Position numbers and translations under genes: made by a program. DNA of 64,000 nt from positions 50,350 through 114,349 of the forward strand of contig CAWJCY010000004.1 of assembly GCA_963841565.1 (NCBI GenBank). Direction: 5' to 3'. This DNA is from an uncultured Nitrososphaerales archaeon (lineage in GTDB: Archaea; Thermoproteota; Nitrososphaeria; Nitrososphaerales; Nitrososphaeraceae). The notes beneath the pieces are model-generated. The model did no database searches and was not told the origin of the DNA. It saw only the letters and a program-made list of their open reading frames with translations. Below are positions 23,883 to 60,268 of the stretch, one piece after another (the stretch's first letter is position 1; each line of letters opens with the position of its first letter).

Positions 23883-23931
23883 GGACGGCCAGGGGGAAGA
23901 AAATCTAGCTAAAACAACCCCTGGTCGCCTA
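23883..23931 (+). ncRNA. Hairpin-family element (putative structured sRNA or REP-like)
   Basis: CGGCCAGGGG (23886-95) pairs with CCCCTGGTCG (23918-27); same stem core as the copies at 48.6 and 51.4 kb. Confidence 0.45.
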
Positions 23932-24670
23932 CTCAACTCGATTTTCATGTTGAACACGTGCATAATACTGACGTATCGGTGTATAGATAAAACCTTAAGT
24001 CACCAAACTTCAATATATTCATACATGACTTTCTAATTGATCTATTCTATCGTCATTGTTCCTTAGTATTTCCTATTCTCCGAAGTTAATAGTTTTACAC
24101 ATATCTTCTAATCAATGACAGCATTCCGTCAATGGTTCAACCGGAATAGTTAGAAGGTGGATTAATTTACTCTTAATTTACAATACCCAGTACGTTCAAG
24201 ATTCTATCCGGAGATGACGCCTTTGGCCACATTTATCTTATCAACCAATGGTAAAAGCATTATAGAAAAAAAGGATTCAATTTTATCAAACCTCTAGTTG
24301 TAGGAAACGTGGAAGAGATTACATCAGGTATAAGTGAAATACAAAAAAAAGAAAGAACCAATATAAGTAACGGCTAGTGACAGAACTCAACAAATCGGTC
24401 TTCACACTCTGGGAAAAATTAGGTAGTCTCAGGGCCAAACTATTATCCTAGAGCAATGAGAATCCAAAAATCAAAGCTGGGCAACTAAATTTTAGATGAC
24501 ATCACTTTGCAGATTACCCCCATCACTATCCTTTCCTAATACGCTAATTACAATTTGTTGAAATTGCGTTATTAATCCTACTGCCACAATATGCCGGTAA
24601 ACGAATGTCTCGCAAGAAAAGTGCTCTCGCTAATACAGGAATGTAGGCTATTGTAGAAGCACACAGTATC

Positions 24671-42396: not shown

Positions 42397-42592
42397 AATA
42401 AGAAAAGCCCGCACACTTTCATTTTTTTATTGTTCCCTGCCTATTGATAGATAGAACTTTGAATCTCAGAATATCGAGTTATGTTTTTCTTGATTAATAT
42501 TTACCCATAAGCTTAGTTATATCACAAATGTATAGAATGTTTTAGTACTGTATTTAACCTTATGACTTGTTAGTTAGTGATCTTGTATATGT

Positions 42593-42870
42593 ATGGTTGT
42601 CGTAGCAGCAATGGCAATAATGCTCATTGGAGCTACAGCATTTGCAACTGACAGTGCATTCGCAGGTGGAGATGGACATAAAAAGAAATATGGAAAAAGT
42701 CAAGCGATCTCACAAGTGAACGATTGTGGGATGGATTCTGGCCAGAGAATGTTGCATGTCAGAATATCGCTTCACAGATTCAGGGCGACGATAACAGAGT
42801 AAAACTAGAGTCATCGCAAACATTTGGAGAAGAACCAATCGGTGTTTCAGAAGAAGAAACAATACCTTAA
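42593..42870 (+). CDS. Tandem paralog of 42136-42396, frameshifted near 42730
   Basis: Same signal and core; restoring one A gives CGNGFWPENVACQNIASQIQGDDN. Confidence 0.75.
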
Positions 42871-42999
42871 GGACTTATTGATTGGGTAAGTGATTTGCGC
42901 GCCGAAATTCCATCGCAACTTCGATTGATTTCTTACGAGTACTGTCGTCACAGATTAGGAAATAAATATTTATTCTGACAGATGTCATAAAATAATTGC

Positions 43000-43398
43000 A
43001 TGTCGCCCAGGCTAGCTATCGTCAAAGTCATGACCGTAAATAAACCCGCGAATCTTGTATTTGATTTCTTTTCCGATGTCAAGAATATGGAGATCGGAGG
43101 AGCAATAAAATCAGTCACAAAAGGAGATGATGATTGGTGGAACTTTGACCATATAATTGCGGGCAAAGGAAGAATGAAAGTCGTTCAAGTTCGTGATTTC
43201 GGAATATTAGATCATGAATTTGTAGGCGCAGGACTAGAATGGAAGGTATATGTCAGAGTAGTTCCTAATGAGGAGGGTTCTACAACTACGTGGACGTTTA
43301 TGAGGCCAGACGGTCTTACTGACGATCAGTTCCAGGAGCAACTCAAGGGATTTGATATGGAAGTAGCCAATTGGAAGAAATATTTGGAAGAAAGTTGA
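43000..43398 (+). CDS. SRPBCC/START-like fold protein
   Basis: 'NKPANLVFDFFSD..N', 'FGILDH.F', 'VRVVPN.EGS..TWT' and a C-terminal helix '..WKKYLE'. Confidence 0.72.
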   Translation: MSPRLAIVKVMTVNKPANLVFDFFSDVKNMEIGGAIKSVTKGDDDWWNFDHIIAGKGRMKVVQVRDFGILDHEFVGAGLEWKVYVRVVPNEEGSTTTWTFMRPDGLTDDQFQEQLKGFDMEVANWKKYLEES

Positions 43399-43460
43399 GA
43401 ACCAGGGTATCCGAAATTTGAATAATCAATCCATCCTGAAGGTTCAAAATAAAACAGTTT

Positions 43461-44343
43461 TTATTTCAAAAAGTCGGACAGACTCGTCTGCTTATTCTTG
43501 ATGACTCGTTTATTCATACTTGAATCATCTATTCCCAGATCGTCTATTGTAACAAATTCTTCTCCCCACTTCACTTCCTCTAGACCTAACAATTGTCTGA
43601 AGATGTTAACGGTTCCTGGACCAAAGCCTGCATAATGATTGTTTGCGGCGACAATTGAAAATTTAACACCAGATAAGTTACTCCAATCAGAGTACATTCC
43701 TGAAGTTGCGCGCGATTTTCTTCATTTCTTTAATCCTGCCAATTTGGATTCGCCCAAAATCTTTCTCTGGTATAGTTCTATCCCCGATTAATCTAACATA
43801 GGCAAAGTCGGATGTGACAATAGGAGGTGTATGTATATCTGCAAGTTGACTCCATACAAGGCACTTCTCGTTGTTCCTGAAGAAATTGTATGCAAGATCT
43901 TGAAGCCACGATCTATGTCTTACTTCTACCGCATACCTGAAACCTTTGTCAAGGTATGGAAGAATGTTTCTGAGAGCATTTAGGCCTTCAACGATATCAA
44001 TCGAGGGAGGCAATTGGATTAGTAATGCCAATAATTTTTCCTTTAATTCAGAGATAGAATCGAAGAAATAACCTAATTGATCCTCATCGAAATCCGACAG
44101 TCACTTGTCATGGGTTATAATTTTAGAGAATTTCGCAGTAAATCGAAAGTTCTCGGGAGTCCTGTCGTACCAGTTCTTGACCATGAATTCGTTAGGAATC
44201 CTGTAGAATGAGGAGTCTATTTCGACATAGTTTAGGACCTTCGAATAATATTTTAACCATTCAGAATTTTCAATACCTTTAGGATATAATAATCCTTGCC
44301 AAGACGAATAAGACCATCCAGAACATCCTATGTAATACTGCAA
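43461..44343 (-). pseudogene. DUF72 family protein, disrupted (TGA at 44101-44103; frameshift near 43695)
   Basis: YIGCSGWSY, VEIDSSFYRIP, F.FTAK....ITH, IQLPPS, YAVEVRH, YVRLIG, NNHYAG; C-terminal QTSLSDF. Confidence 0.9.
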
Positions 44344-44476
44344 GTTTTTTGGTAGGTACTAATGAATACGATCGGATAATAATATTTTTGTGTGATTAAA
44401 CAGGTTTGTGAGTGCAAAAACACGAAAGAGAATAACAGGACATGATAATCAGTCATGTTAACTGGTATCAAATTAT

Positions 44477-45067
44477 TTATTGTTTATCGAATGTAACCTC
44501 TAATATTCCATTTTTATAAGTCGCCTTGGCAGTCTCGGAGTCAATATTATACGGAATGTCTAGAGTACGGGTGCGTTGTTCCCCCTTATTATTTAGATGT
44601 GAAATTGTAATCGAGTAATCATCATAGGCAACTACCTTGATATTTTCTTTCTTATTGTTAATAGGAAGTTGGGACACTATTTTGATGTTCTTATCGGATA
44701 CAATTACATCCTCGGAAGTGTCATGTTCTACTTTTTCGATTCTGGACTCAACGAACTTATCGGAACCTGGTACAGTTTCAACCTTTCTTTTGAATTTTCT
44801 TTCGCTTGCATTTTTGTTCGGTCTGGCAACAGGATAAGAACTGTCTAGAACTATATCCACCTTTTCTCTTACGACCTCACTTCTGATACCCACGTAAATC
44901 TCTGAGGACTCAGTCCATTCATTCATGTCCTCGTCACAAATATCGTAGAGCTTTTTTTTCAATTTATTAAATTCCCTCACTAATTCTAGTGCCATTAGAT
45001 CAGGTTCGTCATCTAAAAATATATCCATCCATTTTTCTATTTGTCTATACCAGTGGTCAGGCATCAA
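44477..45067 (-). CDS. Hsp20/alpha-crystallin family small heat-shock protein
   Basis: C-terminal 'KENIKV...AKATYKNGILEVTF'. Confidence 0.8.
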   Translation of the reverse strand: MMPDHWYRQIEKWMDIFLDDEPDLMALELVREFNKLKKKLYDICDEDMNEWTESSEIYVGIRSEVVREKVDIVLDSSYPVARPNKNASERKFKRKVETVPGSDKFVESRIEKVEHDTSEDVIVSDKNIKIVSQLPINNKKENIKVVAYDDYSITISHLNNKGEQRTRTLDIPYNIDSETAKATYKNGILEVTFDKQ

Positions 45068-45340
45068 TTGTACATACGTCCGTAGAGGAACAAAATAAAG
45101 GTTGTCAGACGGGTATTGAAGGTCAACCGGTTAAATATGACTGACCTCAAGGCACGTCTTGGGTGTATTTGAGACATTCGGTAGCATAATAAAAATCTTA
45201 GATGATCTTCTTTAAAATGCGCGCAAAAATACAAATTTTCTAACCTCCGGATATGTGTTACTATATGATCTAATAACGAAATGGCCATAAAGGTTGAATT
45301 TTATATGATATGTAAAGACCTTAACCAATACAAACACCAT

Positions 45341-45392
45341 AAAGGTGGGCGACACTATCGGCATCCTATCTACCATGGTCGCCTGCCTTTTT
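45341..45392 (+). ncRNA. Hairpin-family element followed by a T-tract
   Basis: AAAGGTGGGCGAC pairs with GTCGCCTGCCTTT using two G-U wobbles; loop contains TATCGGCA, as does the copy at 51.18 kb. Confidence 0.5.
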
Positions 45393-45410
45393 CTCGACCT
45401 GCCTATTACA

Positions 45411-45602
45411 TTAGGTTTCTTCGGTAAATGAATGACACAATAGATTCACAGGGATATCTTTCAAGTAGAGGTCTTCGGCGCGCATTCCATGTTTTTGTAT
45501 TGCATGATCCGCACCGTTTTTTAAGAACTCTTCCATTGTCTCACCTTCGATGACAAAATCGCAGTCCAGGCCAGATTCACGACATACTAGAATATACATC
45601 AC
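45411..45602 (-). CDS. DUF1059 small metal-binding protein
   Basis: C..SG.DCDF.I.GET.EE......HA...HG. Confidence 0.85.
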   Translation of the reverse strand: MMYILVCRESGLDCDFVIEGETMEEFLKNGADHAIQKHGMRAEDLYLKDIPVNLLCHSFTEET

Positions 45603-46629
45603 TATTACTATGTGCGGATCAATCTTAAGCCTTCTTACAACTACTATTGCGCATAGTAATGTGTGGTAAATTGATGTCTAAAGACACTCCATTGACTAAT
45701 AACAGAATGATTTTAGGATGGAATCTATTATCAGAGAACTACTTCAATGGGGTTCGGGATCGCTAGATCTTCTGAAAGGAATTCCATTCCAATTGCTATA
45801 GCAATAAGCAATACAGTAGACACGCTCAACAGCATTCGAAATGTTGGATATTTTGAAATGTTTTGAAATATGATTAATTATACTGCATAATAATTAAACT
45901 TATACTTAAAGTATCAATTAACTTATTTATTAACAAGAACAGAAACAAAAATTTAGAATTTGAATAATTATTATAACGATCATACAACAACATCTCGTGA
46001 GCCTGAGAATGTTATTTAAAATCTTAGTTTTAGACCGGATTAATTCTTGGCGCGATATATCTACGACAAGAATTCATTAAATTTATTCAAATATTTTCTT
46101 ACTGTTTAATGCTGACGCACTTGTCATTATACCCACATAATGAATATTTTGAATGATCTCCACATGCTATGCAATTGATGCTACAGTTAAAACAGTTTTT
46201 AAGCATTGAATTATTGATTTTTTTGACTTTTCGTTCAATACCTTTCAAGATATTACATCGATCCTCAAGTAAAAGAGATGGGGAAACCCTCTGATGAATT
46301 TCATAATTAGAATGAGATTATTCATTGTGGTTACTTTTCATATATATTGACGAAATTTCCTAAGGCCGAAGGTATTTTGAGTATCAAGTTTAAATTTTGT
46401 CTAAAATTTGTTACTGAATCGCGGATTCAAATAATAAATTATTTCAGAATCGATTTGATAGAAAAGTAGTATAACATCATACCATTGTATCTACTATAAA
46501 TTTCAGCCTCGTAAAGTAAGGAAGGGTATTATTTTCAATTTTTCATGACACCAAATCAAATCTAAAGTGAACAGATCCAAAAAGCAAATAAAAGAATAAA
46601 AATCTGAACAAGCAATTTTATGTATTAAA

Positions 46630-47520
46630 TTGACTAGTACAGAGCATGCTTTAAGATTAAGACCTGGAGTCATAGATGATGCGAAGGAGGTTGGAAAAAT
46701 AATTTTTGAAGCATTTTCAGAGATTGCAGATAAGCATGGCTTTCCTCGCGAGTTTCCTACTGTTGATATCGGAATAAATGTAGCCTCTTCTTTTCTCTCT
46801 AACCCTGGATTCTATTCAGTAGTTGCCGAAGATATTGAGGGATACGGTAACAAGGTCATAGGAAGCAACTTTTTAGATGAACGGTCAAATATAGTGGCAG
46901 GGATTGGACCAATAACAATTGATCCAAAATTCCAGAATAAAGGAGCAGGTCGACAGTTAATGAGCAATGTAATGGAGAGAGCTAGAAGCAGGAACTATCC
47001 GGCAATACGTTTGCTCCAAGCGTCATATCATAACCGATCACTTGCGCTGTATACCAGCTTAGGGTTTGATGTCAGAGAGCCAATATCAACCATGCAGGGA
47101 AAACCAATTTCAGTAGTCATTCCTGGAAGATCTGTGCGGGTAGCTACTGAGTCGGATTTGGAATCATGTAACGCAATCTGCAGAGCGATTCATGGCCATG
47201 ATAGAAATGGTGAGTTAAAAGACAGTATAAAGCAAGGAATTGCCAAAGTAGTTTTGCACGGGGAAAAAATTACAGGCTATACAAGTGGATTGACATATTT
47301 TAACCACTCGGTGGGTTTTACTAATGATGACCTTAAGGCCCTCATTGCCTCAGAAACTGATTGTTATGGAGGACCCGGTATTCTTATTCCAACTAGAAAT
47401 GCCGAGCTGTTCCGATGGTGTCTTGACAACAGTCTAAGACTAGTCCATCAACTTACCCTCATGACTATTGGTATGTATAACGAACCTGCTGGATACTACA
47501 TGCCCTCCATTCTATACTGA
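46630..47520 (+). CDS. GNAT acetyltransferase (tandem GNAT fold)
   Basis: GPITIDPKFQNKGAGRQL, 'N.RSLALYTSLGF'. Confidence 0.9.
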   Translation: MTSTEHALRLRPGVIDDAKEVGKIIFEAFSEIADKHGFPREFPTVDIGINVASSFLSNPGFYSVVAEDIEGYGNKVIGSNFLDERSNIVAGIGPITIDPKFQNKGAGRQLMSNVMERARSRNYPAIRLLQASYHNRSLALYTSLGFDVREPISTMQGKPISVVIPGRSVRVATESDLESCNAICRAIHGHDRNGELKDSIKQGIAKVVLHGEKITGYTSGLTYFNHSVGFTNDDLKALIASETDCYGGPGILIPTRNAELFRWCLDNSLRLVHQLTLMTIGMYNEPAGYYMPSILY

Positions 47521-48117
47521 AAGTCGTCTATGAGTCAATCATCTTTCAATACGTATATTCAATCAGTAAAAAGATATCAATATAACCCTTGTTATACAAA
47601 CAGGGAATCTATATCCTAACGCATCTATTTATTGTGAGAAAAAGAAAGGATTTGTTCACATGTTAGCTAGTCATGGTTTACATATCTGATTGATGAGTAT
47701 ACTCAATTCGAATAATGACTGAATTAAGCTGATTTGAAGCTATAATTGTAAAATCATGATTTAATAATTTTGAAATATTATAGTAATGTTTTAGTTATTC
47801 AATAGCTTACATATAAAAGTCTGATATGAACAACAAAACTATCTGTTTATAAATACATAACAAACACAGACGAAGTTTGGGACTCGAATCCATACCGTAT
47901 AATCGTGGATTCATTCAAATAAAACTATTGATATGGTCACGATTTGAAGCTGTCTCTTGAATTCATGATTTACCTAGACACTTAACTTTCTTACCTTCTC
48001 CTTTCTAGAGTCCAAAGGAACAGTTTGTTGTGGTGGCGGTTGTACTGGGTCTTGCAAATTATCATTTTTATTTTGTTTCTTTAAGTTAATAAAATGTTCA
48101 TATGAATCCACGACTAA

Positions 48118-48148
48118 GGCGCCGGGAGTGGGACTCGAACCCACGAGC
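48118..48148 (-). mobile_element. tRNA 3'-end fragment (Ser-like acceptor TCCCGGC-G); probable att site
   Basis: Minus strand CTCGTGGGTTCGAGTCCCACTCCCGGCGCC is a T-arm plus 3' acceptor strand, with no D or anticodon arm. Confidence 0.75.
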
Positions 48149-48511
48149 TACAGTCGTGGAGTGTATCAACATTTTCTGCATCAGTTTCCAACTTCGAGAA
48201 TAGTGATCTCATTTGGTGGATCGAGCAAAATTGATACATGCTCATTTGCATGACAATATTCTTTGATTTATTTAAGCTTACCTCCAGATCCCATCCTGGC
48301 CCTGCCGATATATAATTTAGAAAGATCTTAAATGTCATCTCCTGCAGCTAATATGAAATGACTTTTATAATCTAACTTTCTGTCTTAATATCCATTTCTG
48401 TTATCCTAATTTTGCGCGTATATCTGTAGATCGTTTTTTTTGTGCAAAACGGCTGCCGCAGTACACAAATACTGCGAGGCCAACCACGAAGAGACCATTC
48501 TGGCGCCATAT

Positions 48512-48698
48512 AAGGTAGGAGGCGCAAGTCACCAGGTTTGGTCTGCCTGGTTTATCCTACCTTTTTATGATTTGTTGTACGGAATTATGTAGGGAGCGCC
48601 TGAGCTAACGTAACTCAAATCTAGACGTATGCAAGGTAGGTCAAGGTAGATAGGCGGCCATTTTCTGAACCCGGTTAAGTCTCTGGCCGTCCTATCTA
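48512..48698 (+). ncRNA. Two hairpin-family elements in tandem
   Basis: AAGGTAGGA..ACCAGG / CCTGGT..TCCTACCTT (48512-48563) and TAGATAGGCGGCCA / TGGCCGTCCTATCTA (48647-48698). Confidence 0.55.
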
Positions 48699-48777
48699 GT
48701 TTGATAAAGATTATCCGTCGAATCATGAGCAATTACTGTGAAGGCTATTATAGTCACAGATTTCATATTATGGCAAC

Positions 48778-49224
48778 ATGGCGAAAGCTTCATCGAAAAA
48801 GCGGTCATCTTCCAAATATGATGTCATTATTAAGGCCAAGGCAACGACTACGAGAATTGTTGATATTAATAATGAAATCGTGAGACTTGAGAGCAATAAC
48901 AAGGGACAAGTTACCGGAAAACACTATTCAGGAATTCACTGGGACACAGTAGAAGCCACAATGTTAGCAGATGGTAGTGCAACCCTGACGATCAGGTATT
49001 TGCATATGACTATGAATGGTGAGGCCATTACGGGGATTGGAACTGGAACTCAGATGGCTCCAAATCGCAGGGGAATCTCGCAAGTCACTGCTGAGGGAAC
49101 CATGTGGACATCTGCTCCGAGACTATCGCATCTAAATGGCGGCAGATGGACACACAATGGTGAAGTTAATACCATTAAAGAGACTGTTGACGTACGGGGT
49201 AACTTCACAATCTCAAATACATAA
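48778..49224 (+). CDS. Hypothetical beta-rich protein
   Basis: 148-aa ORF with G/T-rich beta-strand pattern and a basic N-terminus. Confidence 0.7.
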   Translation: MAKASSKKRSSSKYDVIIKAKATTTRIVDINNEIVRLESNNKGQVTGKHYSGIHWDTVEATMLADGSATLTIRYLHMTMNGEAITGIGTGTQMAPNRRGISQVTAEGTMWTSAPRLSHLNGGRWTHNGEVNTIKETVDVRGNFTISNT

Positions 49225-49843
49225 ATAAAACGATCCTATAATAGCTCAACTAATATTGAAATTGGCGTCATATTATTGCAGAGTCGAAAATACTGCAAAA
49301 CATGACTAGTTTCCCTCCACGATGTTATTATTGAGGTAGTAAAAACTTTGGTTCAGTCGATGGATATGAGCGTCACGTTGTAATTAGGCACCCAAACCTA
49401 CCCGGTTATCCTGGACCGGTCGATATCAAATTTTATGGTATAAAAATACAAGATATGTCCTGGGAAAGAGAAATAAAAGAGGATTTTGAATGGAAATAGT
49501 TAGTTGTTCACCATTTTTGATACAGCCTAATTATGCATGTAAACTCGGACGAAGGTAAGATTGAGATAGATATCACCGATGATCATGATTGGGTTGAACA
49601 AATAGGTAAAAACAGCCATATAATGCGAACAAGATGGTGGCAAGCCGGGAATGAATAGAACGAAAGACCCCGATCTACTACCGTATTGCTCAAATATCAT
49701 TATGAAAAATATTTATAGCACAGAATTTATAATAATATAACCATTTCCTCAAGAATTTATGGCTTCTCTCTGATTTAGCTCAGAAAAGTTGATATGACAA
49801 TGTATAAATGCTCAAGACGAGATAATACTATTTTAGAGATGTA

Positions 49844-50212
49844 ATGAAAAAGACTAGACTTAATATAGTGTACGAGTTGCCACTGAAAAAAATCAAGCTC
49901 TCTCCTATTACCATTGAAAACAATAAAATATTGCAGCCTATCGATAAAATCTATTTTGTGATTTGTAATTCCTGTTACTGGTGTGCGACTTATTTCGGTA
50001 TTGATGATTTAGAGTCTCTATCTGGATCATCATCGCATGTTCTAGATTGTCATGTTTGTAATTCACATAACACCGAACTGATGCCTATTGCGACTGACGA
50101 ATCATTTAGAATAGAATATAGCCTAACAAGAGGGATGGAGATTGAATTCTATAAGAGTAATAAAGTTGTGTCTAGACAGGAATCTGTTAATGTCTTAGTG
50201 AGACCTGGATAG
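49844..50212 (+). CDS. Zn-ribbon protein (CNSC...CHVC)
   Basis: Paralog of 52375-52746 and 35622-35922. Confidence 0.8.
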   Translation: MKKTRLNIVYELPLKKIKLSPITIENNKILQPIDKIYFVICNSCYWCATYFGIDDLESLSGSSSHVLDCHVCNSHNTELMPIATDESFRIEYSLTRGMEIEFYKSNKVVSRQESVNVLVRPG

Positions 50213-50272
50213 TAAAATTGGAAAGAATAATTATATGATATTAAGTCTGACTGACTTATTGATTGATGTCAA

Positions 50273-50497
50273 ATGTTAAACGAACAGGAACAAATGAAGG
50301 TTTTACAACATAAAATATTAACGAGTCTTAATCCCGATGAAATCAGGTCATTATTAAATGAATTAGAAGCGTTCGGTCATAAATCTTTACCATGCATGTC
50401 TGAGATATTGAAGCTATCTTATAATAGTGACATTGTACGACCCACTAATCTTTGCATCTCACGTGTAAAACAACAGTTCGAGTGGTCAGATTCATAA
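50273..50497 (+). CDS. Small helical (HEAT-like) hypothetical protein
   Basis: 'LNELEAFGHKSLPCMSEIL' helical pattern. Confidence 0.5.
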   Translation: MLNEQEQMKVLQHKILTSLNPDEIRSLLNELEAFGHKSLPCMSEILKLSYNSDIVRPTNLCISRVKQQFEWSDS

Positions 50498-50689
50498 TAC
50501 ATTCCCTGTTATTAAACAGTATTCAGCTAACGAGTTGTTCGGTATCAGAGTAACCCGAGTCCAGTTAGTAACAATCGAATATACTAAACCTGAAATAACA
50601 TATCGTAATCTATTACTCAATAGGAGAAATTAGTGATATAATTATACGTTAGGGGGTAAAGTTAGGAAGCTTCGTTTAGCTATATAAAT

Positions 50690-50780
50690 AAAACCTAAAT
50701 CGTATCTGTCGAACCTGCTACCACTACTGCAGTGGCAAATCTACTACCCACTCAATTAATCTTAATCTTTATGTTTTTTT
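50690..50780 (-). pseudogene. 3' fragment of a TRAM gene
   Basis: Reverse strand resembles KNIKIKIN.VGSRFATAVVVAGSTDTI*. Confidence 0.7.
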
Positions 50781-50863
50781 GGTCAGACTCTTTTAACTGT
50801 TATCTAAATGATTTTTTTATATTTTATTGCCTGAATACTGCAGGGAAAATTCTAGCAAACTCT

Positions 50864-51466
50864 AAAGGTAGGAGTAACACCAGGTTTGGTCTGCCTGCCT
50901 GGTTTATCCTACCTTTTATGATTTGTTGTATACATACCATTGACAGTATCTCCAACTACTGTCGCTGGTAACAAATCCAACCCAGCTTCAAACGTTCCAT
51001 CGTGACTAAGACAGGTCAGATACAAGATAGAAATAGTCGCCAGGTTGTTATATATCGCCTGGTAGCTTTCCATCTTCATAAAAAAGATAAGATAAGCTAA
51101 CCTGGAAATCTTGTATGTTTAAATGTCGGTAATGCTACATGTCGCAAACCTGCACAAGGTAGAGGTAGTGACGGCTAGCATATCGGCACAAATTCTGTTG
51201 GTCGTCCCTACCTACAAAGTTTTAAATGCTCATTTTGTGAATTCGGGGAACCGTAACCAAAGGTCCGAAACCAAAGGCGCGGTGAACCCATGGTAGACGG
51301 CTAGGGTTTGTTAACCTAATCTCTTCCTAGCCGTTCTACCTCTTACCACAATTTCAAGATATCTAGAAAATGTCTAATATTAATATGGTTTGTTATGAAT
51401 CATTATGATTAGGTTGGGCGGCCAGCAGGCTCATCTGATTAGACAGAATCTCTGGTCATCCTACCT
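50864..51466 (+). ncRNA. Array of five hairpin-family elements
   Basis: Stems at 50864-50916, 51024-51076, 51163-51213, 51292-51340 and 51411-51466. Confidence 0.6.
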
Positions 51467-51512
51467 TATGTGCTTTGCATAGTGGCGTTAGTTTCATCAT
51501 CGAGGAAAAATA

Positions 51513-51965
51513 TTAAAATCGAACTTTTACAGTATCGAAGTCTGTCCACATATTAAATCCAGTGACTACAAAAACCTGAAAATGAAGGTGTCGTAGATAT
51601 GTATAACCAGTCATTCTAACCTTAGCTATCTCTTCGCCTGCTCTGACATTCTGACCAACTTTCACTGTTGAACTATTATAGCTTAGGTGATCGTATCGTG
51701 AGTATTCTCCGTTTGAGTGCATAATTACAATAAAGTTTGTATGCCCCCAATAAACTGGATTAGATCCTCCGATATTAGAGTCATCTTTAACAAAAGTCAC
51801 TATTCCGTCGGCTGTGGCAAGAACGGGCGTATCTTTATCAACTATAAGATCAATGGCGTTTCGAAGTTTGTCCATATGAGCTGGCGAGGAAGTTCTGTCG
51901 ATACGCTGTAACAGATCTTTCGGTACCGGGAGTTTATATTTATTGATAGCATTTTTCCTCACCAT
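51513..51965 (-). CDS. M23 family metallopeptidase domain protein
   Basis: NAIDL, TPVLA.ADG.V, Y.HL, V..GQ.V.AGE.IA, HLHFQV. Confidence 0.85.
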   Translation of the reverse strand: MVRKNAINKYKLPVPKDLLQRIDRTSSPAHMDKLRNAIDLIVDKDTPVLATADGIVTFVKDDSNIGGSNPVYWGHTNFIVIMHSNGEYSRYDHLSYNSSTVKVGQNVRAGEEIAKVRMTGYTYLRHLHFQVFVVTGFNMWTDFDTVKVRF

Positions 51966-52374
51966 GATTTTATGCCTTGTTCTACTACATGACTTTGGTT
52001 ACATCATAGACTTGTAGATATGATTGCGACATTGGATGTGAGAGAAAATGGCATTATAATTTAAAATATCTTCCTAATGTTACCGTTCAGTTTAGATATA
52101 GCAACTATAGTTTCGCTCATTATAAACCCGACCATTACAGTTTTTTTGCCAGGATCAAAATGACTCGCAAGATTATTTAACACTATTGTAAAATTATTCA
52201 GTCGGATATAAAAGACTTTAAAAAATACACAGAGATTTGCTATTTTAGAGCTCAGAATTTATAATAAATGATCATTCTCTCAGCAATTCATAAGCCTCTT
52301 TAAAAAACAAAGCCGAGATGATAATACATAAAAACTATAGCTGCGACTAAAGACTTTTAGGAATGTGATAAGAA

Positions 52375-52746
52375 ATGATCAGACTTAATATAGTGTATGA
52401 TTTGCTGCAAACAACCAAGATCTCTTCGAATACTATTGAAGATAATGAAATTTTGCGGCCCGTCGATAAGATCTATTTTGTGATTTGTAATTCATGTTAT
52501 TGGTGTGCGACTTATTTCGGCATTGACGAGTTAGAGTCTATATCTGAATCATCATCGCGTGTTCTAGATTGTCACATTTGTAATTCTCATAATACAGAAC
52601 TAATACCTATCTCCACTGACGAATCATTCAGAATAGAATATAATCGAACTAAAGGTATGGAAATGGAGTTTTATAGGGGTAACAATATTGTTAATAGACA
52701 ACAGTTTGCTAATGAGTATGAAGCTTCACGTTCACTATCAGAGTAA
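52375..52746 (+). CDS. Zn-ribbon protein (CNSC...CHIC)
   Basis: Close paralog of 49844-50212, including shared upstream sequence (CAGAATTTATAATAA). Confidence 0.8.
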   Translation: MIRLNIVYDLLQTTKISSNTIEDNEILRPVDKIYFVICNSCYWCATYFGIDELESISESSSRVLDCHICNSHNTELIPISTDESFRIEYNRTKGMEMEFYRGNNIVNRQQFANEYEASRSLSE

Positions 52747-53125
52747 CTTACAAATACTATCTATAGATCCATCTTATCATAAATGACAGCTAAATAATAT
52801 TATGTTTGATAGCGCAATATTTATGATAATAATGCCTTGGTCGTCCGCTACTCACCACAACATGATTATGTGTTATACGTTCTCTACAAGAGACACAAAG
52901 TCCATTCTGTTTAGCTTCTATCATTCTGAGTATACGATTTATTTTTTCATTGGGATTAATGATTACCGGGAGAACTAGATTATTATCATCTATTAAAGAG
53001 CATACAAATGAGATTTGTTATACACTAACTTGGAGTAAAAACACAATAAAATTTAGCTATCGAGACTTTCTTCTAGTCGATACGTTGTGAAATTGTTATA
53101 TATCATAAAAATAATTGCCAATTCG

Positions 53126-53386
53126 ATGAAAAGTCAAATAATTGTAGCCATTGGCGTCGCAATCGTTGCGTCGATATTGGTGACTGGACTTGCATCCTCT
53201 ATTTATGCCCAGTCAAATATGACTGGAGGAAATGTGACTGGAGGAAATATGACTGGAGGAAATGTGACTGGAACAACGAGCACAGATGGCGGTGATGGTG
53301 ACGACGGTGGAGATGGAGATGGTGACAACGGAGACGGTGGAGACAACAGTGACGGAGAGAACGATGGAGAAGACGGATCGAACTAG
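53126..53386 (+). CDS. Small secreted low-complexity protein with four N(M/V)T sequon repeats
   Basis: Signal peptide ending in IYA; 15-bp tandem repeat at 53216-53272; D/G-rich tail. Confidence 0.75.
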   Translation: MKSQIIVAIGVAIVASILVTGLASSIYAQSNMTGGNVTGGNMTGGNVTGTTSTDGGDGDDGGDGDGDNGDGGDNSDGENDGEDGSN

Positions 53387-53565
53387 TTAGATACGTAGTA
53401 TAAAATCAAAGTTAAACAATCCAATTTTATATTATTTTTTTCCTGTTCTTTATTTATAGGCTTTCTGTCAGCTCCAGTTTAAAACTTGACTGATTTTTAT
53501 ATTATGTTGTATATAGTCAAGCAGATAGGTCCCTAACTATCGTAAACATGATCTGACATACATAA

Positions 53566-53830
53566 TAGGGCAGCAACCAGGTTGGTGGTTTCATCCCCTG
53601 GTTGCTCACCCCTACTATCTATACACACTATGTTATGTTATAATATAAGCCAAGATAGGATAGGTTTGTCTTCGTATGAAGCTGGTTTGGTCTATCCGGC
53701 TGGCTAGCTTCAATTTTTTTACTATTCATTTAATGGTAAACATTAAGAACGAGTTGCCCTACAATTTTAAGTTAACCTATATCTTGGGTTGGGCAACTTC
53801 TCCATTTACCTCAAGCCCAACTCCAAGATA
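53566..53830 (+). ncRNA. Cluster of three hairpins (one clear family member, two divergent)
   Basis: TAGGG.AGCAACCAGG / CCTGGTTGCT..CCCCTA; TGAAGCTGGT / GCTAGCTTCA; TATCTTGGGTTGGGC / GCCCAACTCCAAGATA. Confidence 0.5.
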
Positions 53831-54523
53831 GTTTATGTTAATAACCAAGTCACACTATCGACATTTACAGTACGAGGTTACGTACGTCTCGTCTTAGGAT
53901 CCCTGAGGGTTAGGACTGGCCTGATTATAATAATGGCAGTGATATTTGCAGTGATGATGTTGGATTGTTATTAGGACTTGAAGTCGTCGGTGGAACAGGA
54001 GCTGTTACTGGTGCGGGGTAGTATAGACTGCACCATCGAAACATATCATGCTGGTATTCCACATCAACTGAAGTCAAGAGATCGTAAGATCAGTTCTGTT
54101 CTAATTCAGATACAATACTAGAAGATATGATAATGTCCATTTTTGGGTGTGCAAATGACTACCGACTCTGGTATTGATGTCGATATATTAGCGAAGAGAC
54201 TATGTACCTATAGCTAATCCAATATTCAGCCCACTCCTCTCTACAATAGTTACAACGAGATATTTGATAAGACAAACTATCATAGGTACGATACATTGGA
54301 ATGATTGTGATATTATCCGCTTTACATATACAACGTTCATTAGTTGCAGCAGGTCTTACAAGATTATTGTGTTCATTTTCTAGGAGTTTACTCGTGCGCC
54401 TGCAACACCAGCTGTAGTATGCAGATCATAACTTTAACCTTTTCTAATATATCACCAACCAATGCGGCCACTAGTTAGAATAACAAAAAGAAAAAAGGTT
54501 AGGTTAGACTATTTTTAGTCGCC

Positions 54524-54637
54524 TTATCCGTTGCCTTCGCCGCCGTAGTCACCGCCGTTACCGCGGCCATCCTCGTGTGGGCCTTGGCTGCTTGCGAGTC
54601 TTGCGCGATTATCGTCGCCCTGAAACATTCTATACAT
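54524..54637 (-). pseudogene. Internally deleted third copy of the 42136/42593 secreted-protein gene
   Basis: Upstream sequence of gene 42593 (GTTATATCACAAATGTATAGAATGTT) is fused directly to its 3' part (TCAGGGCGACGATAA). Confidence 0.75.
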
Positions 54638-54683
54638 TTGTGATATAACTGAGCGTTAGACTAACAATAATAGAAATTGAGGG

Positions 54684-55145
54684 TTATGGAACAGCCATTC
54701 CAGTAGAGGATAATGCTCTATTAATATTGTTTGTAATTTGTTCCAGGAGTGGATTGGTCTGCTCGAAATCATCTTCTTCACTCGATGTTGCATCTTGTTG
54801 TGAGTCACTACTGTCATCATCGTTTGTATCTTGTGAGTCACTACTGTCATCATCGTTTGTATCTTGTGAGTCACTACTGTCACCGTTGTCACCGTTGTCA
54901 CCATCGTCATTAGATCCAGAAGAGCCAGAAGATTCATCATCGTTGCTATCATCATTATTATCGTTCTCATCATCATTGCTATCTGAAGCTACAGGAGCTG
55001 GTGTTAAAGGTGCACTATTCAATGTAGAGGTGCTGTTCTGCGCAAATACGGAATTTTGGCTTTCATCAATTGTAATTAGTATGACCGTGGATAGCAGTAA
55101 TACAGCTGTTAGTGCGCTGAATCTGACATGTTGGATGTTAATCAA
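54684..55145 (-). CDS. Secreted D/S/N-rich protein with 33-bp internal repeats
   Basis: Signal peptide ending in VFA; (DDDSSDSQDTN) repeats; amphipathic C-terminal helix. Confidence 0.78.
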   Translation of the reverse strand: MINIQHVRFSALTAVLLLSTVILITIDESQNSVFAQNSTSTLNSAPLTPAPVASDSNDDENDNNDDSNDDESSGSSGSNDDGDNGDNGDSSDSQDTNDDDSSDSQDTNDDDSSDSQQDATSSEEDDFEQTNPLLEQITNNINRALSSTGMAVP

Positions 55146-55554
55146 TTTCTATTCTAAATCTGCTATTTAACTACAAGTTTTATCTTGGTTAATTCAGATT
55201 TATAGTATATTTTTTCGATAACTAATCATGTGGAAAATGCAGCCGCAATTTGTAGCTGCATTTGAGGCAATCAGCAATCCTCTCGCAATCAACAGCGATA
55301 ACTAATGTCATCTACAAACCTATGTGCACGTCATTACTATAGATAGTACTATTCTCAATTCTTATCCGCATACTGATGCGGGTTGAATTCTCTGTGTTGG
55401 TCGTGTCTGCGTCTGCGTAGGTTGTGTTGTTGATTATAGCAATTCGAAAAATAAGATAATTAATTATTATGTTAGTCTTATAATAGAAACAAAATCTAAA
55501 TCGTATCTTTTGAACCTGCCGTTGCTATTTGAACTACTGGAGGTTAGCGCATAG

Positions 55555-56230
55555 CCAAACATTCAGCTTCTGACCAAGCCGCTTGAATGGCATTATCTTT
55601 TTCGTATGTCGAGGATTGTCCCACCAACCCACAAGACCTTTGCATCTGCCACATCGAAGCCCTGTTCTCAAATCGTTTATCTTAAAAAACTCTAGCGTCA
55701 TAGAATCATTCAAAGATCTGTTGCAAATACAATCTTCGGTCCAATGCAATTTAGTATATTATAGCCAATATAGGATATTACACGATGTGATTCATCATAC
55801 TATTAGAATAGTACTGGATCAGGTACTAGTTATATTCAGCAGGATGACAATAACCTTTTTTAGGCCTATTATAGTGGGGGCGTATTGATTGTAGCAATTC
55901 TAAAAATAAGACAATAGAAACAAACCTAAGTCGTATCTGTTGAACCTGCCGTTGCTACCTCCGCAGTGGCAAACCTATCTCCTACAGAATTAACCTTGAT
56001 CTTTACACTCTTGTCCCCAACTTTTGCATGTTTTACGAAAATAACAAAGCCTCCAATTCTCGCAATACCGTCTCCGCCTCTACCTGTGTCAGTAATATCT
56101 ACCGTGTATTCTTTGCCTGTTTCTACAGGTTTTGAGAAGCCGCCCGTTGTTCTCGTATTCTGTCCGTAACTCATTAAAAGTCGTATTTAATGGGCATTAA
56201 GGTAATATGAACTAACGTATTAAACGTATT
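55555..56230 (-). repeat. Inverted ~670-bp duplicate of 41370-42040 (promoter + TRAM + downstream unknown ORF)
   Basis: Colinear similarity from TTAGTTCATATTAC through the TRAM gene to GGTCAGAAGCTGAATGTTTGGCTAT. Confidence 0.9.
55926..56174 (-). CDS. Single TRAM-domain protein
   Basis: KPVETGKEYTVDITDTGRGGDGIARIGGFVIFV. Confidence 0.92.
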   Translation of the reverse strand: MSYGQNTRTTGGFSKPVETGKEYTVDITDTGRGGDGIARIGGFVIFVKHAKVGDKSVKIKVNSVGDRFATAEVATAGSTDTT

Positions 56231-56261
56231 AGGGCCGTCACATTCGTACGTCTTATGACAT

Positions 56262-56881
56262 CTATTTATCCATCCGCTTTAATTGTTGGTTTTTGATATC
56301 AATAGCTTTACCAAGATCTGACAATTGAGCGGACCATAGAATTACCTTATTCATCGAATTTCTCTTTTGGCTCTCTAGATTTGTTATCTCGTCGCTAAGA
56401 TATTGAACTCTGTTCACTAAATCAGATAAATCATAATTTGCATATCTGATAAGCTTAGAGATATTTTTTCATCTAACATACGACGCTCTTTCAAACAGTG
56501 AAATATCTTCAAAAAAGATGGCAAATAAGTCTTAACCTCATTGTACACAAATGCCAAATCGTACAGCCCATTCAAAGCCCAGAACTCCTCTTGGATATCA
56601 TGAACTTCCGAAGCTGTCAGATCTAATTCTATCGCAACTTCAATAGGTTTTTTTCCATTTGAAAATAGCCACAACGCCTTTGTTTCTCTGGACTTGTTTT
56701 TGATATCTATTTTAGCTTCAATTCCAACATCATTGTCCCGTCCATCTATTTTTCGTATAATCGCTCCAATATCGGTAAAAGACAAATGCGCTGCTGCCGC
56801 AATCTCACGTATGGTCTTACCCTGTCGGTATAACTCGATGACTAGCTGCTCTTTTTCTCGCCTGTTTAATACCAGTTGCAA
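56262..56881 (-). CDS. Tandem-HTH + coiled-coil protein of integrative-element type, frameshifted near 56465
   Basis: 'EQLVIELYRQGKTIREIA...HLSF.DIG.I', second HTH 'GKKPIEVAIELDL'; coiled coil continues in the adjacent frame to TAG at 56262. Confidence 0.75.
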
Positions 56882-57062
56882 TATGTTTTATTAATACTCA
56901 TTACAGATAGCTTTTTCTGTCTCTGTTATTGGTTGTTATCTACTGTTACCGCTTAATATCGTCTGTTGTTTTGTACCGTCTAATACTCGTGATGCAAACT
57001 TCAATATGTGTCTTATAGGTGATGTATTTACAACCGTTAAATACCATTTTGAATAGCTCTAA

Positions 57063-57233
57063 ATGAAAATGGTTCTCGGAACTCTAGTGTACATAATTAT
57101 TATCATTGTCGTTATTATTGTTATAATAGCTCTACTCAAATTTCTTTTTCAATTGTTCTTTCTAATACCGGTTGGAACGGATCATTACATGGATATTCTA
57201 TATGCTAAAGAGATTTTACTATCGATGAACTAG
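57063..57233 (+). CDS. Small single-TM membrane protein (56 aa, below the ORF track cutoff)
   Basis: MKMVLGTLVYIIIIIVVIIVIIALLKFLFQLFFLIP... Confidence 0.6.
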   Translation: MKMVLGTLVYIIIIIVVIIVIIALLKFLFQLFFLIPVGTDHYMDILYAKEILLSMN

Positions 57234-57295
57234 ATTGAGTCTGGCTGTAATGGCATTTGCTACAATCAGTTTTAATTGATGTATTCAACTTGCAA

Positions 57296-57763
57296 TTAAT
57301 TCTTTACGGTCTCAGCCACTAGATCAGTTAAACGATCTGTGTCAAACGGTTTTTGTATGTATTTTGATATGTAATTTCCGTTTTCTAAATCTCTTATAAG
57401 CTCATTATCTACATTATATGCTGAATTGAGAATTATTTTGGTTCCACTGTATTCTTTTATCTTGCGAGCAACAGAATCACCCATCATATCATCCAGTTTA
57501 TAATCCAATAGTATGAGATGTATTTTGTTACCCCGATTTATTTCCTCTATGTACCTCTCAATACACTCTTCGCCAGAGTCTACCATTATTACATCGTATC
57601 TTGACCCGAGCACTAACCCAAATAATAAACGCACATCTGGTTCGTTCTCACATATCATTATCGTTTTCTTTTTTCTTTCAAAATTATTATGATGATTATA
57701 AGTTAAATTCAAATGCGTGACTACAAACTTTGGCGCACTGGGTATAAAGACCTTTAGAACCAC
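57296..57763 (-). CDS. Stand-alone response regulator receiver protein
   Basis: IMICENE, LILLDYKL...G, SAY, KPF. True start is probably downstream of 57763. Confidence 0.85.
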   Translation of the reverse strand: MVLKVFIPSAPKFVVTHLNLTYNHHNNFERKKKTIMICENEPDVRLLFGLVLGSRYDVIMVDSGEECIERYIEEINRGNKIHLILLDYKLDDMMGDSVARKIKEYSGTKIILNSAYNVDNELIRDLENGNYISKYIQKPFDTDRLTDLVAETVKN

Positions 57764-57860
57764 ATTACCTTAGGATATAAGCTTCAACAGGTGTCTTGTA
57801 GAGGCGAGTTTCATAATAGTCAAATTTTATGAACGACAATTCACTCATGGATTATCGGGG

Positions 57861-58097
57861 ATGGCCATCACTGCATTAATCTTGACCAGAAAGAGAAAGC
57901 TGTATTATTTCGTTGCAATAGGTACATCATGGATAGCATTTGTTCTATTGGAAGTCTATGAACTCGCGGCAGTGGCGACCGGTTTTGGGGGCGGATATAT
58001 TCAGACTGAACCGATGGATATTGCAATTGATCTGTGGGTGGATTCATTAGGCGCTTTAGCAGTTTGTTTCCTATATGATGAGTTTAGTCATGAGTGA
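57861..58097 (+). CDS. Small membrane protein (possibly a 5'-truncated fragment)
   Basis: Hydrophobic segments with 'EVYE...D...DL..D.LGA'. Confidence 0.5.
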   Translation: MAITALILTRKRKLYYFVAIGTSWIAFVLLEVYELAAVATGFGGGYIQTEPMDIAIDLWVDSLGALAVCFLYDEFSHE

Positions 58098-58157
58098 CAA
58101 ATCGACAGCGACATCATACAACAATTCAGCTATTGTAGGTCGGTCTGTTTGTTATGG

Positions 58158-58427
58158 TTATTGATCGGCTTCATCCGCCTTTGGAGTATTAGGGGATACA
58201 TCAGATTTGCTTGCAATCCCAATATGTTCATGATGCATGCTATTACTGTCATCGTGGTTTAATGAGGGGGTAGAATATTTCTCTTTTTCTGCCATACAAT
58301 CATTGCATGTCCATGAACCGTCAACATATTTACCCAATTTTACTCTTCCATGATTTTCTATTTCCATTTCTATAGAATCAGTAACAGGCGAATTACATTG
58401 GTCACATCGAGGCAGAGAATTTTCCAT
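58158..58427 (-). CDS. Small Zn-finger-like protein
   Basis: CDQC...WTCNDC. Confidence 0.6.
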   Translation of the reverse strand: MENSLPRCDQCNSPVTDSIEMEIENHGRVKLGKYVDGSWTCNDCMAEKEKYSTPSLNHDDSNSMHHEHIGIASKSDVSPNTPKADEADQ

Positions 58428-58607
58428 AGTAATAACTTAATAAAACGTTATAAATATTAATTCTATGTTAATACAATAACTATTGCGACCAGAACGCCAG
58501 TTAGTAGATTCGTTTTTTTCATTCGGGGTTTTCCGGCATATTCTGCGGTGCTATCAATCTTCCTCAAGTTTGTGTCTGTTTCTATAACTAGGTATTGTTC
58601 TCATCTC

Positions 58608-59849
58608 TTAGCCACCTACTGTTGCAGGTTGTATTGCCTGTGTAGATTGTGTTGCTGTCTGCGTCTGTGTAGTTTGTGTTGCTGTCTGTGTCGGTTGTGT
58701 TTTCGTATTTAATATGCTGCTATCTACTAGTGCTTGGCAGACTAGTTGTGTGTTACCGATTTGCGTACATCCCACAACGAAGCCATCGGAGTATGCTTTC
58801 TGGCCGTCTGTATAAAGTCCACACGCTAGATATTTAGGGGTATCAAACTTTTGTTCTATTCCATTTGCGCTGCCATCAAGTCTACAATTTGATACATCGA
58901 CTGCATTTGCATTTGCAGTTGCAGTTGCAGTTGCAGTTGGAGTTGGACTCTGGATCACGGTTGTTTCGTGAACAATTTTGGTCCTATCATTATCGTTACC
59001 TTTGTTACTATTTCCATAACACTCTTTCATAAGAGGGTTTTTCTTACAGAAATCTTTGTATTCGGTGCTGACGTCTACACAATCTTTCCAATCAGCTTTA
59101 TGCGTTCCATCGTTACATGGATACAGTTTAGTGTCTTGACTATAATCTTTTACATCCCAGCAGTTTTTTGAGTCTTCAGCGGCGGGTGTATTACAATATG
59201 GCGATGGATCTTTTGGAGGGGGACATGATTGATCGGCTACTACAATAATTCCGTCATAACATTCTTTTTGTTCTTGTGGCGGGTGATTTTGACAATCACT
59301 CATATCATCATTACATTCACATTCATGTGCAGTAGTTCCTGCAACACATACATCTCCATTCTTAGTTACACAATCCTGAAATGTTCCATCACAGAGTGGT
59401 AATCTAGTTGCTGACGCCTGATCAGTCTCAGGACAATCTTCGTCTACTCTATCTTCTTCAACCTGTGTTTGACCATCTGGACATAAGACTAATACTGGTT
59501 CTTCCTCATCTTGTGGGCATGGTTCTCTAGGATTTACAAACACTCCATTACCACAATCAACCACTCCTGTCTCTCCTGCCTCTTCTGGAGTCGGTAAGCC
59601 TGCATATGGATCTTCGTCATCTTCATTATATGGATCTTCCTCTTCCCCTGGTCTACCAGCGTCTTCCCAATCTTCTTGCTCTTGTTCATCTATCTCCTCT
59701 TTCTCTTCATCACTAGAGTCATCTGGATATGTATAACCGTCATCTTCCGTGGTTGCCGATGCATATATTGACAACTGATTCCATGTTATCATGGTTATTG
59801 CCATCATAGCTATCAAAGAACAGAATGCGGCTTTCCGAATATTATTCAT
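58608..59849 (-). CDS. Secreted acidic, Cys-rich repeat protein with Thr/Gln-rich tail
   Basis: Signal peptide; multiple short C.DG..V....CP modules; T/A linker; C-terminal Cys domain. Confidence 0.8.
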   Translation of the reverse strand: MNNIRKAAFCSLIAMMAITMITWNQLSIYASATTEDDGYTYPDDSSDEEKEEIDEQEQEDWEDAGRPGEEEDPYNEDDEDPYAGLPTPEEAGETGVVDCGNGVFVNPREPCPQDEEEPVLVLCPDGQTQVEEDRVDEDCPETDQASATRLPLCDGTFQDCVTKNGDVCVAGTTAHECECNDDMSDCQNHPPQEQKECYDGIIVVADQSCPPPKDPSPYCNTPAAEDSKNCWDVKDYSQDTKLYPCNDGTHKADWKDCVDVSTEYKDFCKKNPLMKECYGNSNKGNDNDRTKIVHETTVIQSPTPTATATATANANAVDVSNCRLDGSANGIEQKFDTPKYLACGLYTDGQKAYSDGFVVGCTQIGNTQLVCQALVDSSILNTKTQPTQTATQTTQTQTATQSTQAIQPATVGG

Positions 59850-59899
59850 TTTTTACCATCATTAACCAGGTTTCTCAAAAAAAAAGATATCAGTTGTCA

Positions 59900-60268
59900 T
59901 CAATTATTATTGTTTTGTTGGTTACCATACAATAAGCCTGCAGCATTCCACCCAGCGAAATAACCGCTCTTGTACAATGCACAATATGCATCCGGATTTT
60001 GGGCATTATTATTTGGATCACAATAAGCCTGGCTCGACCCATCATTTAGTCTGGCGTCTCTTCCATCTTGATAACCTTGATCAAATGCCCCACTGGAAGA
60101 ATAGACAGGCTGTTGTTGTGTGGCTAAACTGACAGTGATGAGTAATGCTGCAACGATTGTTCCGGTTTTGAGAGCCTTTTGGTGTGTCATACCGTACATA
60201 TGGATACACGGTAATATATAGCTGGTTATTTGTAGTATTATGTAGTCTGATAGTATAGTTATTAACAC
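59900..60268 (-). CDS. Small secreted 'GYxxG' Cys-pair protein
   Basis: Signal-like segment (start likely at the later Met); GYQDG...C...YC..Y..GY..GW. Confidence 0.7.
   Translation of the reverse strand: MLITILSDYIILQITSYILPCIHMYGMTHQKALKTGTIVAALLITVSLATQQQPVYSSSGAFDQGYQDGRDARLNDGSSQAYCDPNNNAQNPDAYCALYKSGYFAGWNAAGLLYGNQQNNNN

Follow-up and report, generated by a model that had tools for sequence, protein, structure and literature searches.

The LhrC small RNAs have pyrimidine-rich loops and separate promoters. LhrC of Listeria monocytogenes and NgncR_162/163 of Neisseria are outlined as multi-copy, adjacent and similar small RNA genes with stem-loops (PMC9973317). The cuckoo RNAs of Alphaproteobacteria form rows of adjacent hairpins with pyrimidine-rich loops in the account given by PMC4615179, and ArrS, RseX and SdsR are introduced as bacterial sRNAs whose terminator loop regulates (PMC11979758). 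Two further hairpin systems invite comparison. GTAG REP elements carry, according to the definition in PMC3733652, an unpaired GTAG tag at one end, a 5–13-bp stem and a 2–20-nt loop, and the layout of stem-loop TIGR arrays has been outlined as well (PMC12045711; bioRxiv 10.64898/2026.09.09.750476).

Here, we describe an array of five stem-loops in the genome of an uncultured Nitrososphaerales archaeon (G000; 2.05 Mb, 88% complete). The window, i.e., the whole stretch of DNA that was analyzed, comprises 64,000 nt (contig C4, positions 50350–114349). Each array hairpin appears to form the 3' end of a tiny non-coding RNA gene with a putative promoter of its own, and we assign a probability of roughly 0.6 to the reading that the array is a tandem cluster of five sibling-type small non-coding RNA genes of one paralogous family. 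Judged by analogy, the array would work most like a sibling sRNA cluster. Several paralogous non-coding units are present per genome and, as far as the published outline allows the comparison, both systems consist of multi-copy, adjacent and similar units with stem-loops. In contrast to the seven LhrC members, however, the host is an archaeon, the promoters would be of the TATA type and up to 26 matches occur per genome. Moreover, the 3' stem is constant here, leaders and loops fall into many families and no target was found.

The cuckoo RNAs are described with a fixed loop motif and varying stems, whereas here the stems are fixed and the loops vary, and the array hairpins are separated by 70–110 nt that include a promoter-like box. 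ArrS, RseX and SdsR provide a precedent, as an analogy only, for a 3' terminal hairpin with a functional loop, but are portrayed as single-copy, bacterial and dependent on Hfq and RNase E. The family was apparently undescribed before. Neither this family nor any other regulatory small-RNA family of the Nitrososphaeraceae was found described in the accessible literature; an sRNA or repeat catalog that includes this family may exist in figures, supplements or subscription papers.

Five hairpins without a reading frame

All five stem-loops lie on the + strand (Table 1), with start-to-start distances of 160, 139, 129 and 119. Orientation and spacing had been reported in the initial annotation and the exact coordinates were recovered; the folding energy on the + strand is lower than on the − strand in 5/5 hairpins. 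In the comparison with 200 dinucleotide shuffles, a check proposed in that annotation, the + strand z-scores of units 1–4 (−5.1, −4.6, −4.1 and −5.7) bear out the predicted folds, whereas the fold of unit 5 alone is not significant (z −1.4; 20/200 shuffles equally good). The regularity of the array is incidental. It had been called quasi-periodic, but there is no true period: each distance results from a promoter length plus a leader length that are particular to the unit, and the spacing differs between homologs.

The array had been judged to lack a credible ORF, and this holds: frames of 56–79 aa are broken in homologs, and only 47/196 indels are multiples of three. Rfam 15 gave no match near the gathering score for window positions 40000–60000 and 10 loci. 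A search with an arm profile, trained partly on the array's own units and with 2/21 profile units from the unpublished genome G013, returned 6 arm pairs in the host genome and none in any of the three block-shuffled controls. A generic hairpin scan of the whole genome was too permissive (1569 hits).

Among the recurring short sequences named in the initial annotation, TATCGGCA indeed occurs in both the hairpin at 51163 and the hairpin at 45341. AATCTC, said to precede the closing arm in units 4 and 5, does so directly in unit 5 but lies 3 nt before the arm in unit 4. Of the two copies of TTTAAATG upstream of units 3 and 4, one lies at 51118 as reported and the second at 51221 instead of 51222. 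The loops had been regarded as unique, but each recurs in homologs and paralogs. CRISPR had rightly been rejected: there are no direct repeats with unique equal-length spacers, and of the cas genes, Cas1 was found in 0/5 genomes.

Table 1. Features of the five array units, their flanks and further family members in the window
Feature	Position	Strand	Remark
Unit 1 TATA-like box, class A type	50815..50829	+	degenerate; aligned with class A boxes of homologs
Unit 1 3' hairpin, then T run	50864..50916	+	predicted RNA ~50843–50918, start inferred from TATA spacing
Unit 2 class A promoter-like box	50914..50930	+	overlaps unit 1 T run; 0.86 mean identity among homologs
Unit 2 5' hairpin at predicted start	50942..50963	+	YAGY motif 30 nt after first T of box
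Unit 2 3' hairpin	51024..51076	+	predicted RNA ~50942–51079
Unit 3 class B promoter-like motif	51094..51125	+	decayed TTTTAT at 51110, alternative TTTAAA at 51118
Unit 3 leader	51138..51161	+	0.92 mean identity among homologs
Unit 3 3' hairpin	51163..51213	+	two conserved G-U pairs; predicted RNA ~51138–51216
Unit 4 BRE/TATA-like box	51215..51228	+	best + strand score of the region with the tRNA-promoter profile
Unit 4 3' hairpin	51292..51340	+	one bulged base in 3' arm; predicted RNA ~51249–51344
Unit 5 candidate TATA position	51360..51367	+	weakest promoter call; TATATA in homologs, changed here
Unit 5 3' hairpin	51411..51466	+	stem partly decayed; predicted RNA ~51388–51468
Left flank: 3' remnant of TRAM-domain gene	50691..50778	-	outside array
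Right flank: M23 peptidase gene	51513..51965	-	convergent with array, outside array
Family member	48512..48563	+	near copy of unit 1 hairpin with different leader
Family unit	48563..48697	+	class A box at 48563, hairpin 48647–48697
Solitary family hairpin	45341..45390	+	
Family unit	53495..53613	+	class A box at 53495, hairpin 53566–53613
Solitary family hairpin	23883..23935	-	unit-4-like loop

In this array, units 1, 3 and 5 have degenerate boxes, and a 4-T tract is absent after units 2, 4 and 5; the terminators are weak in this copy. Copies of unit 3 that lack TTTTAT carry TTTAAA 8 nt downstream, and copies with TTTTAT do not (51110–51125). This TTTAAA could be a compensating shift of the TATA box, but it probably reflects a single event.

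A hairpin family of one genus

The family is real, ordered, genus-specific and non-coding. A covariance model (R1) with only 6 base pairs and badly aligned outer arms, built from 27 hairpins (2/27 seeds from G013), matches in 13/13 same-genus genomes, 1–26 times per genome with both strands counted. These copy numbers are lower bounds, because only 97 candidates per genome were scored. The model matches in 0/23 genomes of other Nitrososphaeraceae genera and yields one weak match each in 4/24 more distant genomes. When positions 50700–51600 were searched in 60 relatives, the array part was found in 10/13 same-genus genomes with ~70–90% identity, often in several copies, and the matches in other genera comprise flanking gene ends only. 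Hairpins and intervening sequence of the array homologs align in the same order. A strict family pattern, searched in one genome per GTDB species, returned 7 stretches, 6 of them in records titled Nitrososphaerales or Nitrososphaeraceae. On this basis, and because the host genome contains an archaeal 16S gene, we assign the host to the Nitrososphaeraceae. The stem pattern is also matched by a REP-like GTAG...CTAC dimer in a Lacunisphaera record (L120, 601–656), which apparently lies in coding sequence.

The best 150 of 167 matches from 73 sources gave 111 distinct hairpins, 109 of them anchored, and no G013 sequence is among them. This set and the analyses of polarity, TTTTAT enrichment, unit boundaries, start motifs, tails and ends are free of G013. 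The latter contributes 1/16 rows of the homolog alignment and 1/11 rows of the unit 3 homolog alignment and counts as one genome in the tallies of array homologs, covariance matches and class B matches; no conclusion depends on it.

The repeating unit consists of a TATA-like box, a 15–80-nt leader, a conserved stem with a pyrimidine-rich loop and a T-rich tail. The G+C-rich stem of ~14 bp has a 5' arm rich in purines and a 3' arm rich in pyrimidines, the latter often with a single bulged base, and its pairs covary across the family; the covariation alignment (A4) mixes both strands of many elements, and its G-U counts were left unused. Covariation is not claimed for the unit 4 leader, as one of 12 rows in its alignment (L023) stood on the wrong strand. 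Loops measure 14–45 nt and are pyrimidine-rich in 31/38 clusters. The leaders of 109 units fall into 48 families, and many family copies are decaying.

A stem followed by a T run resembles an intrinsic terminator. TTTT is present 3' of 39/109 hairpins (mirror control: AAAA 5' of 5/109), and a few units lie 60–150 nt before a same-strand gene. The hairpins might therefore be read as cis-acting terminators, attenuators or insulators for neighboring genes, but we consider this quite improbable. Outside ORFs of ≥90 aa lie 106/111 hairpins, mostly >100 nt away, with no clear orientation link and no recurring transposase neighbor; moreover, rows of five occur without genes, and the sequence of the stem is conserved. 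According to the description in PMC8716108, archaeal termination relies on U tracts with aCPSF1 and needs no hairpin. Hence, the fixed stem sequence needs a role other than termination, and it would most simply be a protein-binding handle.

Promoter-like motifs at archaeal spacing

The hexamer TTTTAT occurs 25–100 nt upstream on the same strand in 25/50 non-redundant flanks, compared with 3/50 on the opposite strand, 9/69 downstream and 221/3000 control windows. It peaks 26–40 nt before ATG in 870 host ORFs. A promoter profile derived from 25 tRNA upstream regions and applied at fixed distance showed no enrichment (9% vs 7%); a sigma-70 promoter scan, irrelevant to this host, remained at chance level.

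Two promoter-like motifs can be distinguished. Class A is TTTTATAA followed by a T/G-rich box and lies ~95 nt upstream of the stem core; class B comprises 20 nt ending in TTTTAT and lies ~55 nt upstream of it. The class B pattern has 68 matches in 14 genomes (reversed pattern: 5). Its longer form is found in 11/13 same-genus genomes with 2–11 copies and elsewhere in 10/137, singly and at control level. A hairpin lies 3' of 19/29 distinct class B matches (among the 30 loci listed) vs 51/600 random windows, with 10/19 positives already among the hairpins that yielded the motif and a ratio of 17/27 without G013 (2 positives). Among 19 new class B loci, 9 pass strictly, 7 have decayed arms by eye, 2 have none and 1 lies at a contig edge.

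In archaea, the transcription start site is expected at the spacing at which fixed motifs of the family sit, ~30 or ~26 nt after the box. Counted from the first T of the box, a short fixed motif, chosen by eye on the same data, is present at ~30 nt in 18/26 class A units (shuffles: mean 2.3, maximum 8) and at ~26 nt in 10/22 class B units. A 5' hairpin begins at the start-like motif in 11/26 class A units. Among the homologs of units 2 and 3, the boxes (0.84–0.90 identity) and the unit 3 leader (0.92) are more conserved than the box-to-start spacers, with 0.53 behind the unit 2 box (0.86 for that box itself) and 0.73. ATG is not in excess at the predicted start (6 vs 5.9 and 5 vs 5.8 expected), which argues against small ORFs.

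Strand polarity and the likeness to REP elements

Neutral decay of a palindrome in double-stranded DNA would be expected to leave equal numbers of G-T and A-C mismatches. When elements are oriented by loop composition, 23 G-U face 6 A-C in 22 clusters (p 0.002), and 18 face 6 when they are oriented by tail, in a small sample in which one cluster merged 72 elements and for which the model search may favor G-U-biased elements. Both orientations agree in 16/19 clusters, and sets assembled independently of the model show the bias too. The unit 3 stem keeps G-U at two positions in 7/11 and 10/11 homologs, and six distinct metagenome unit 3 stems have 14 G-U and 0 A-C. The excess of G-U therefore indicates that structure matters on one strand, which for the array is the + strand.

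The bias fits single-stranded DNA as well. The units could accordingly be non-autonomous REP/MITE-like DNA modules, in which a single-stranded hairpin is recognized by a trans-acting transposase or recombinase, the upstream motifs form the other end of the element and RNA is incidental; we regard this as rather unlikely. Like GTAG REPs, REP dimers and BIMEs as they are characterized in PMC3733652, the hairpins are GTAG-ended palindromes of 45–60 nt that are intergenic, clustered and lineage-restricted, and G-T pairs are described as common in REPs too. The stem ends in GTAG...CTAC in 70/109 hairpins and the bacterial REP-like dimer of L120 fits the same pattern, so that descent from a REP-type repeat is possible. 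The family is genus-restricted, multi-copy, clustered and often decayed within a mosaic of multi-copy modules, and decay of many copies (unit 5, z −1.4) is expected also of selfish repeats.

However, in a comparison by description and not by consensus, the published definition of a GTAG REP does not fit, since the tag is paired with CTAC in 70/109 hairpins and the 14–45-nt loops mostly exceed 2–20 nt. The arms form own hairpins in 0/109 and no RAYT is linked; each unit moves together with its dedicated upstream motif, which sits at promoter spacing. Target duplications, scored for hairpin ends only, number 2 vs 3.2 expected. In genomes that are 57–99% complete and often leave repeats unassembled, Y1 transposase is absent from 13/14, the single one belonging to an IS605-like element without the family hairpin by eye; TnpB was found in 0/1 genome, Y2 and reverse transcriptase each in 0/5, and IS110 in 2/14.

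Gain, loss and exchange of units

Among 108 oriented elements, upstream sequence alone is shared in 64 pairs and downstream sequence alone in 18. In 30 pairs the loop follows the upstream part, in 2 the downstream part, and 6 pairs from two leader families differ in the loop only, with both flanks retained; the members of such pairs are related and not independent, and the counts overstate independence. Apparent loop inversions were an artifact of the orientation vote, which had turned three unit 5 copies the wrong way; six elements were re-oriented by loop and tail for the extent of homology, the target search and the tail/end analysis. Homology between copies typically starts just before the box and often stops 0–10 nt after the stem, an extent that corresponds to a gene with a hairpin at its 3' end.

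Metagenome loci with the unit 3 loop word are homologs in 19/21 cases and chance matches in 2/21. Whole units are lost or displaced among the homologs, as the initial annotation had proposed to check: the unit 4 hairpin is missing from L182, a unit 4 leader is followed by the unit 5 hairpin in L185 and the unit 2 hairpin is displaced in L188. In L028, a leader and left arm of the 48512 type are fused to the loop and right arm of unit 2. Family units occur alone and in rows and move together with the upstream part. On this comparative evidence, units are gained, lost, moved and swap loops between genomes. The initial suggestion of tandem mini transcription units is supported, at the level of sequence, by a same-strand TATA-like box with a start-like motif at archaeal spacing, by solitary units, by movement with the upstream part and by gain and loss of units.

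Homology that often ends at the hairpin would also fit attC-like recombination sites of an integron-type cassette system that uses the many tyrosine recombinases of the genus. The hairpin is asymmetric with a bulged base and a variable loop, and up to 26 tyrosine recombinases are present per genome, two of them within 3 kb of arrays. Nevertheless, this reading is highly improbable: R boxes were found in 0/109, no same-strand protein gene terminates in the 50 nt upstream of a hairpin, and contigs with a recombinase rarely coincide with contigs with a hairpin. Tyrosine recombinase matches were obtained in 12/14 genomes (e.g., L028 1380–2642 and L029 106–1365) and are not linked to hairpins.

Transcripts, targets and possible effectors

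RNA-library contigs from 4 runs of low depth cover the flanking genes and hardly the array, where a single 36-nt piece of a paralogous loop was found; RNAs this short are easily lost. None of the 19 RNA runs listed contained half of the array words. A search for antisense targets in rRNA, tRNA, start regions and the host genome, which would miss short imperfect pairing, gave none above shuffles. The unit 3 leader has a further 15-nt match in the host genome, which is same-sense intergenic sequence in a duplicated stretch and not a target. In a viral collection, two family patterns had 0 matches, and 3 matches to 18–19-nt loop words are at chance level and do not extend past the word. The loop search against host and viral sequences that had been suggested at the outset gave nothing above chance.

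These results bear on the processed guide-RNA-like array that had been considered initially. The stem would be the scaffold and loop or leader the guide for an unrecognized effector, and the RNAs would arise from individual promoters or by cleavage of a read-through precursor. A constant scaffold with a variable loop, the 6 loop-only pairs, the variety of leader families and weak terminators inside the array agree with such an arrangement, but we judge it unlikely. The loops differ in length and are retained from species to species, no targets above chance were found and no common neighbor gene among the family loci could be the effector. The small chance that we give to a genus-specific modular guide-RNA library is of the same order; in such a library, the constant 3' stem would bind an unrecognized protein, the exchangeable loop or leader would address a nucleic-acid target and stem recombination would reprogram the set.

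Known guide systems do not match. Like stem-loop TIGR in its published outline, the array has tandem stem-loops in which the variable part is bordered by CCA and TG, but it has no inner D/C pair, CCA and TGG lie within the stem and no Tas-type Nop gene is present. Two 9-nt spacers between box C and box D were found in 0/109. A Nop-domain Tas gene is not adjacent, although the Pfam model might miss a Tas that has diverged strongly, and each genome has one housekeeping Nop copy. C/D or H/ACA guide RNAs were rejected as well: C and D boxes together occur in 2/109 and ANA in 11/109, and complementarity to rRNA and tRNA is no better than in shuffles. Neither a target nor an effector was found in these searches, and the function proposed for the array follows by analogy with sibling sRNAs.

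Surroundings in the window

Smaller arrays had been noted at 48512/48647 and 53566/53677/53780. The hairpins at 48512, 48647 and 53566 are family members, but 53677 is at best a decayed one and the arms at 53780 differ from the family. The hairpin at 53780–53830 has a pyrimidine-rich loop and is retained with compensating changes in the loci L091 and L097, and it possibly represents a second RNA family. At 62407–62470, a family-like arm pair encloses a loop of 63 nt; the surrounding element is decayed and contains HTH and fragmentary ORFs.

Between 44 and 56.5 kb of the window, small genes (TRAM, M23 peptidase, Hsp20, DUF1059, GNAT and unknowns) form a mosaic. Its modules have sharp ends and are multi-copy in many contexts in 5/5 relatives searched; they include M23 peptidase, TRAM, zinc-binding-like 122-aa ORFs and an unknown 148-aa protein. 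The latter (48778–49224, + strand) is multi-copy and is encoded downstream of family units in the window as well as in L028 and L036. It has no Pfam family and only unnamed Nitrososphaerota neighbors in the atlas, and its gene is not consistently linked to family units.

A 30-bp exact copy of the tRNA-like 3' end at C9:83240–83269 of the host genome is located at 48117–48146 (− strand), with a decayed second copy at 47878–47918. Situated where the mosaic region borders on other sequence, this repeat has the appearance of an attachment-site scar. Beside TRAM genes, 41709–42009 and 55580–55880 form an inverted 301-bp copy (93%) with different frames in the two copies, possibly a conserved non-coding or a decayed module. 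Near-identical duplicated stretches of the host genome (C4 ~10–13 kb and C12 ~345–348 kb; C6 ~128 kb and the start of C10) are either recent duplications or a strain mixture in the assembly.

A putative sibling sRNA set in Nitrososphaeraceae

If the array is a sibling sRNA cluster, the host RNA polymerase would start ~30 nt after each TATA box and produce RNAs of ~75–140 nt that end just after the stem. The common stem may then serve as a 3' handle that stabilizes the RNA and is bound by a shared protein, and unit-specific leader and loop would confer specificity. The RNAs would act in trans as post-transcriptional regulators, like bacterial sibling sRNAs. Rows of units may grow by duplication at the DNA level with the upstream promoter traveling along, and recombination between similar stems would delete units and swap loops.

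The Nitrososphaeraceae are major ammonia oxidizers. If the small-RNA gene reading is true, one genus would possess an unusually large sibling sRNA set of up to ~26 detectable copies per genome, shaped by birth-and-death evolution. The set would combine two promoter-like motifs of its own with a 3' stem that stays constant and loops that can be exchanged. This reading predicts exact RNA starts and ends, and the stem would provide a probe for the binding protein. The family may further be usable as a marker of the genus and, if the loops are guides, would represent a new kind of programmable system.
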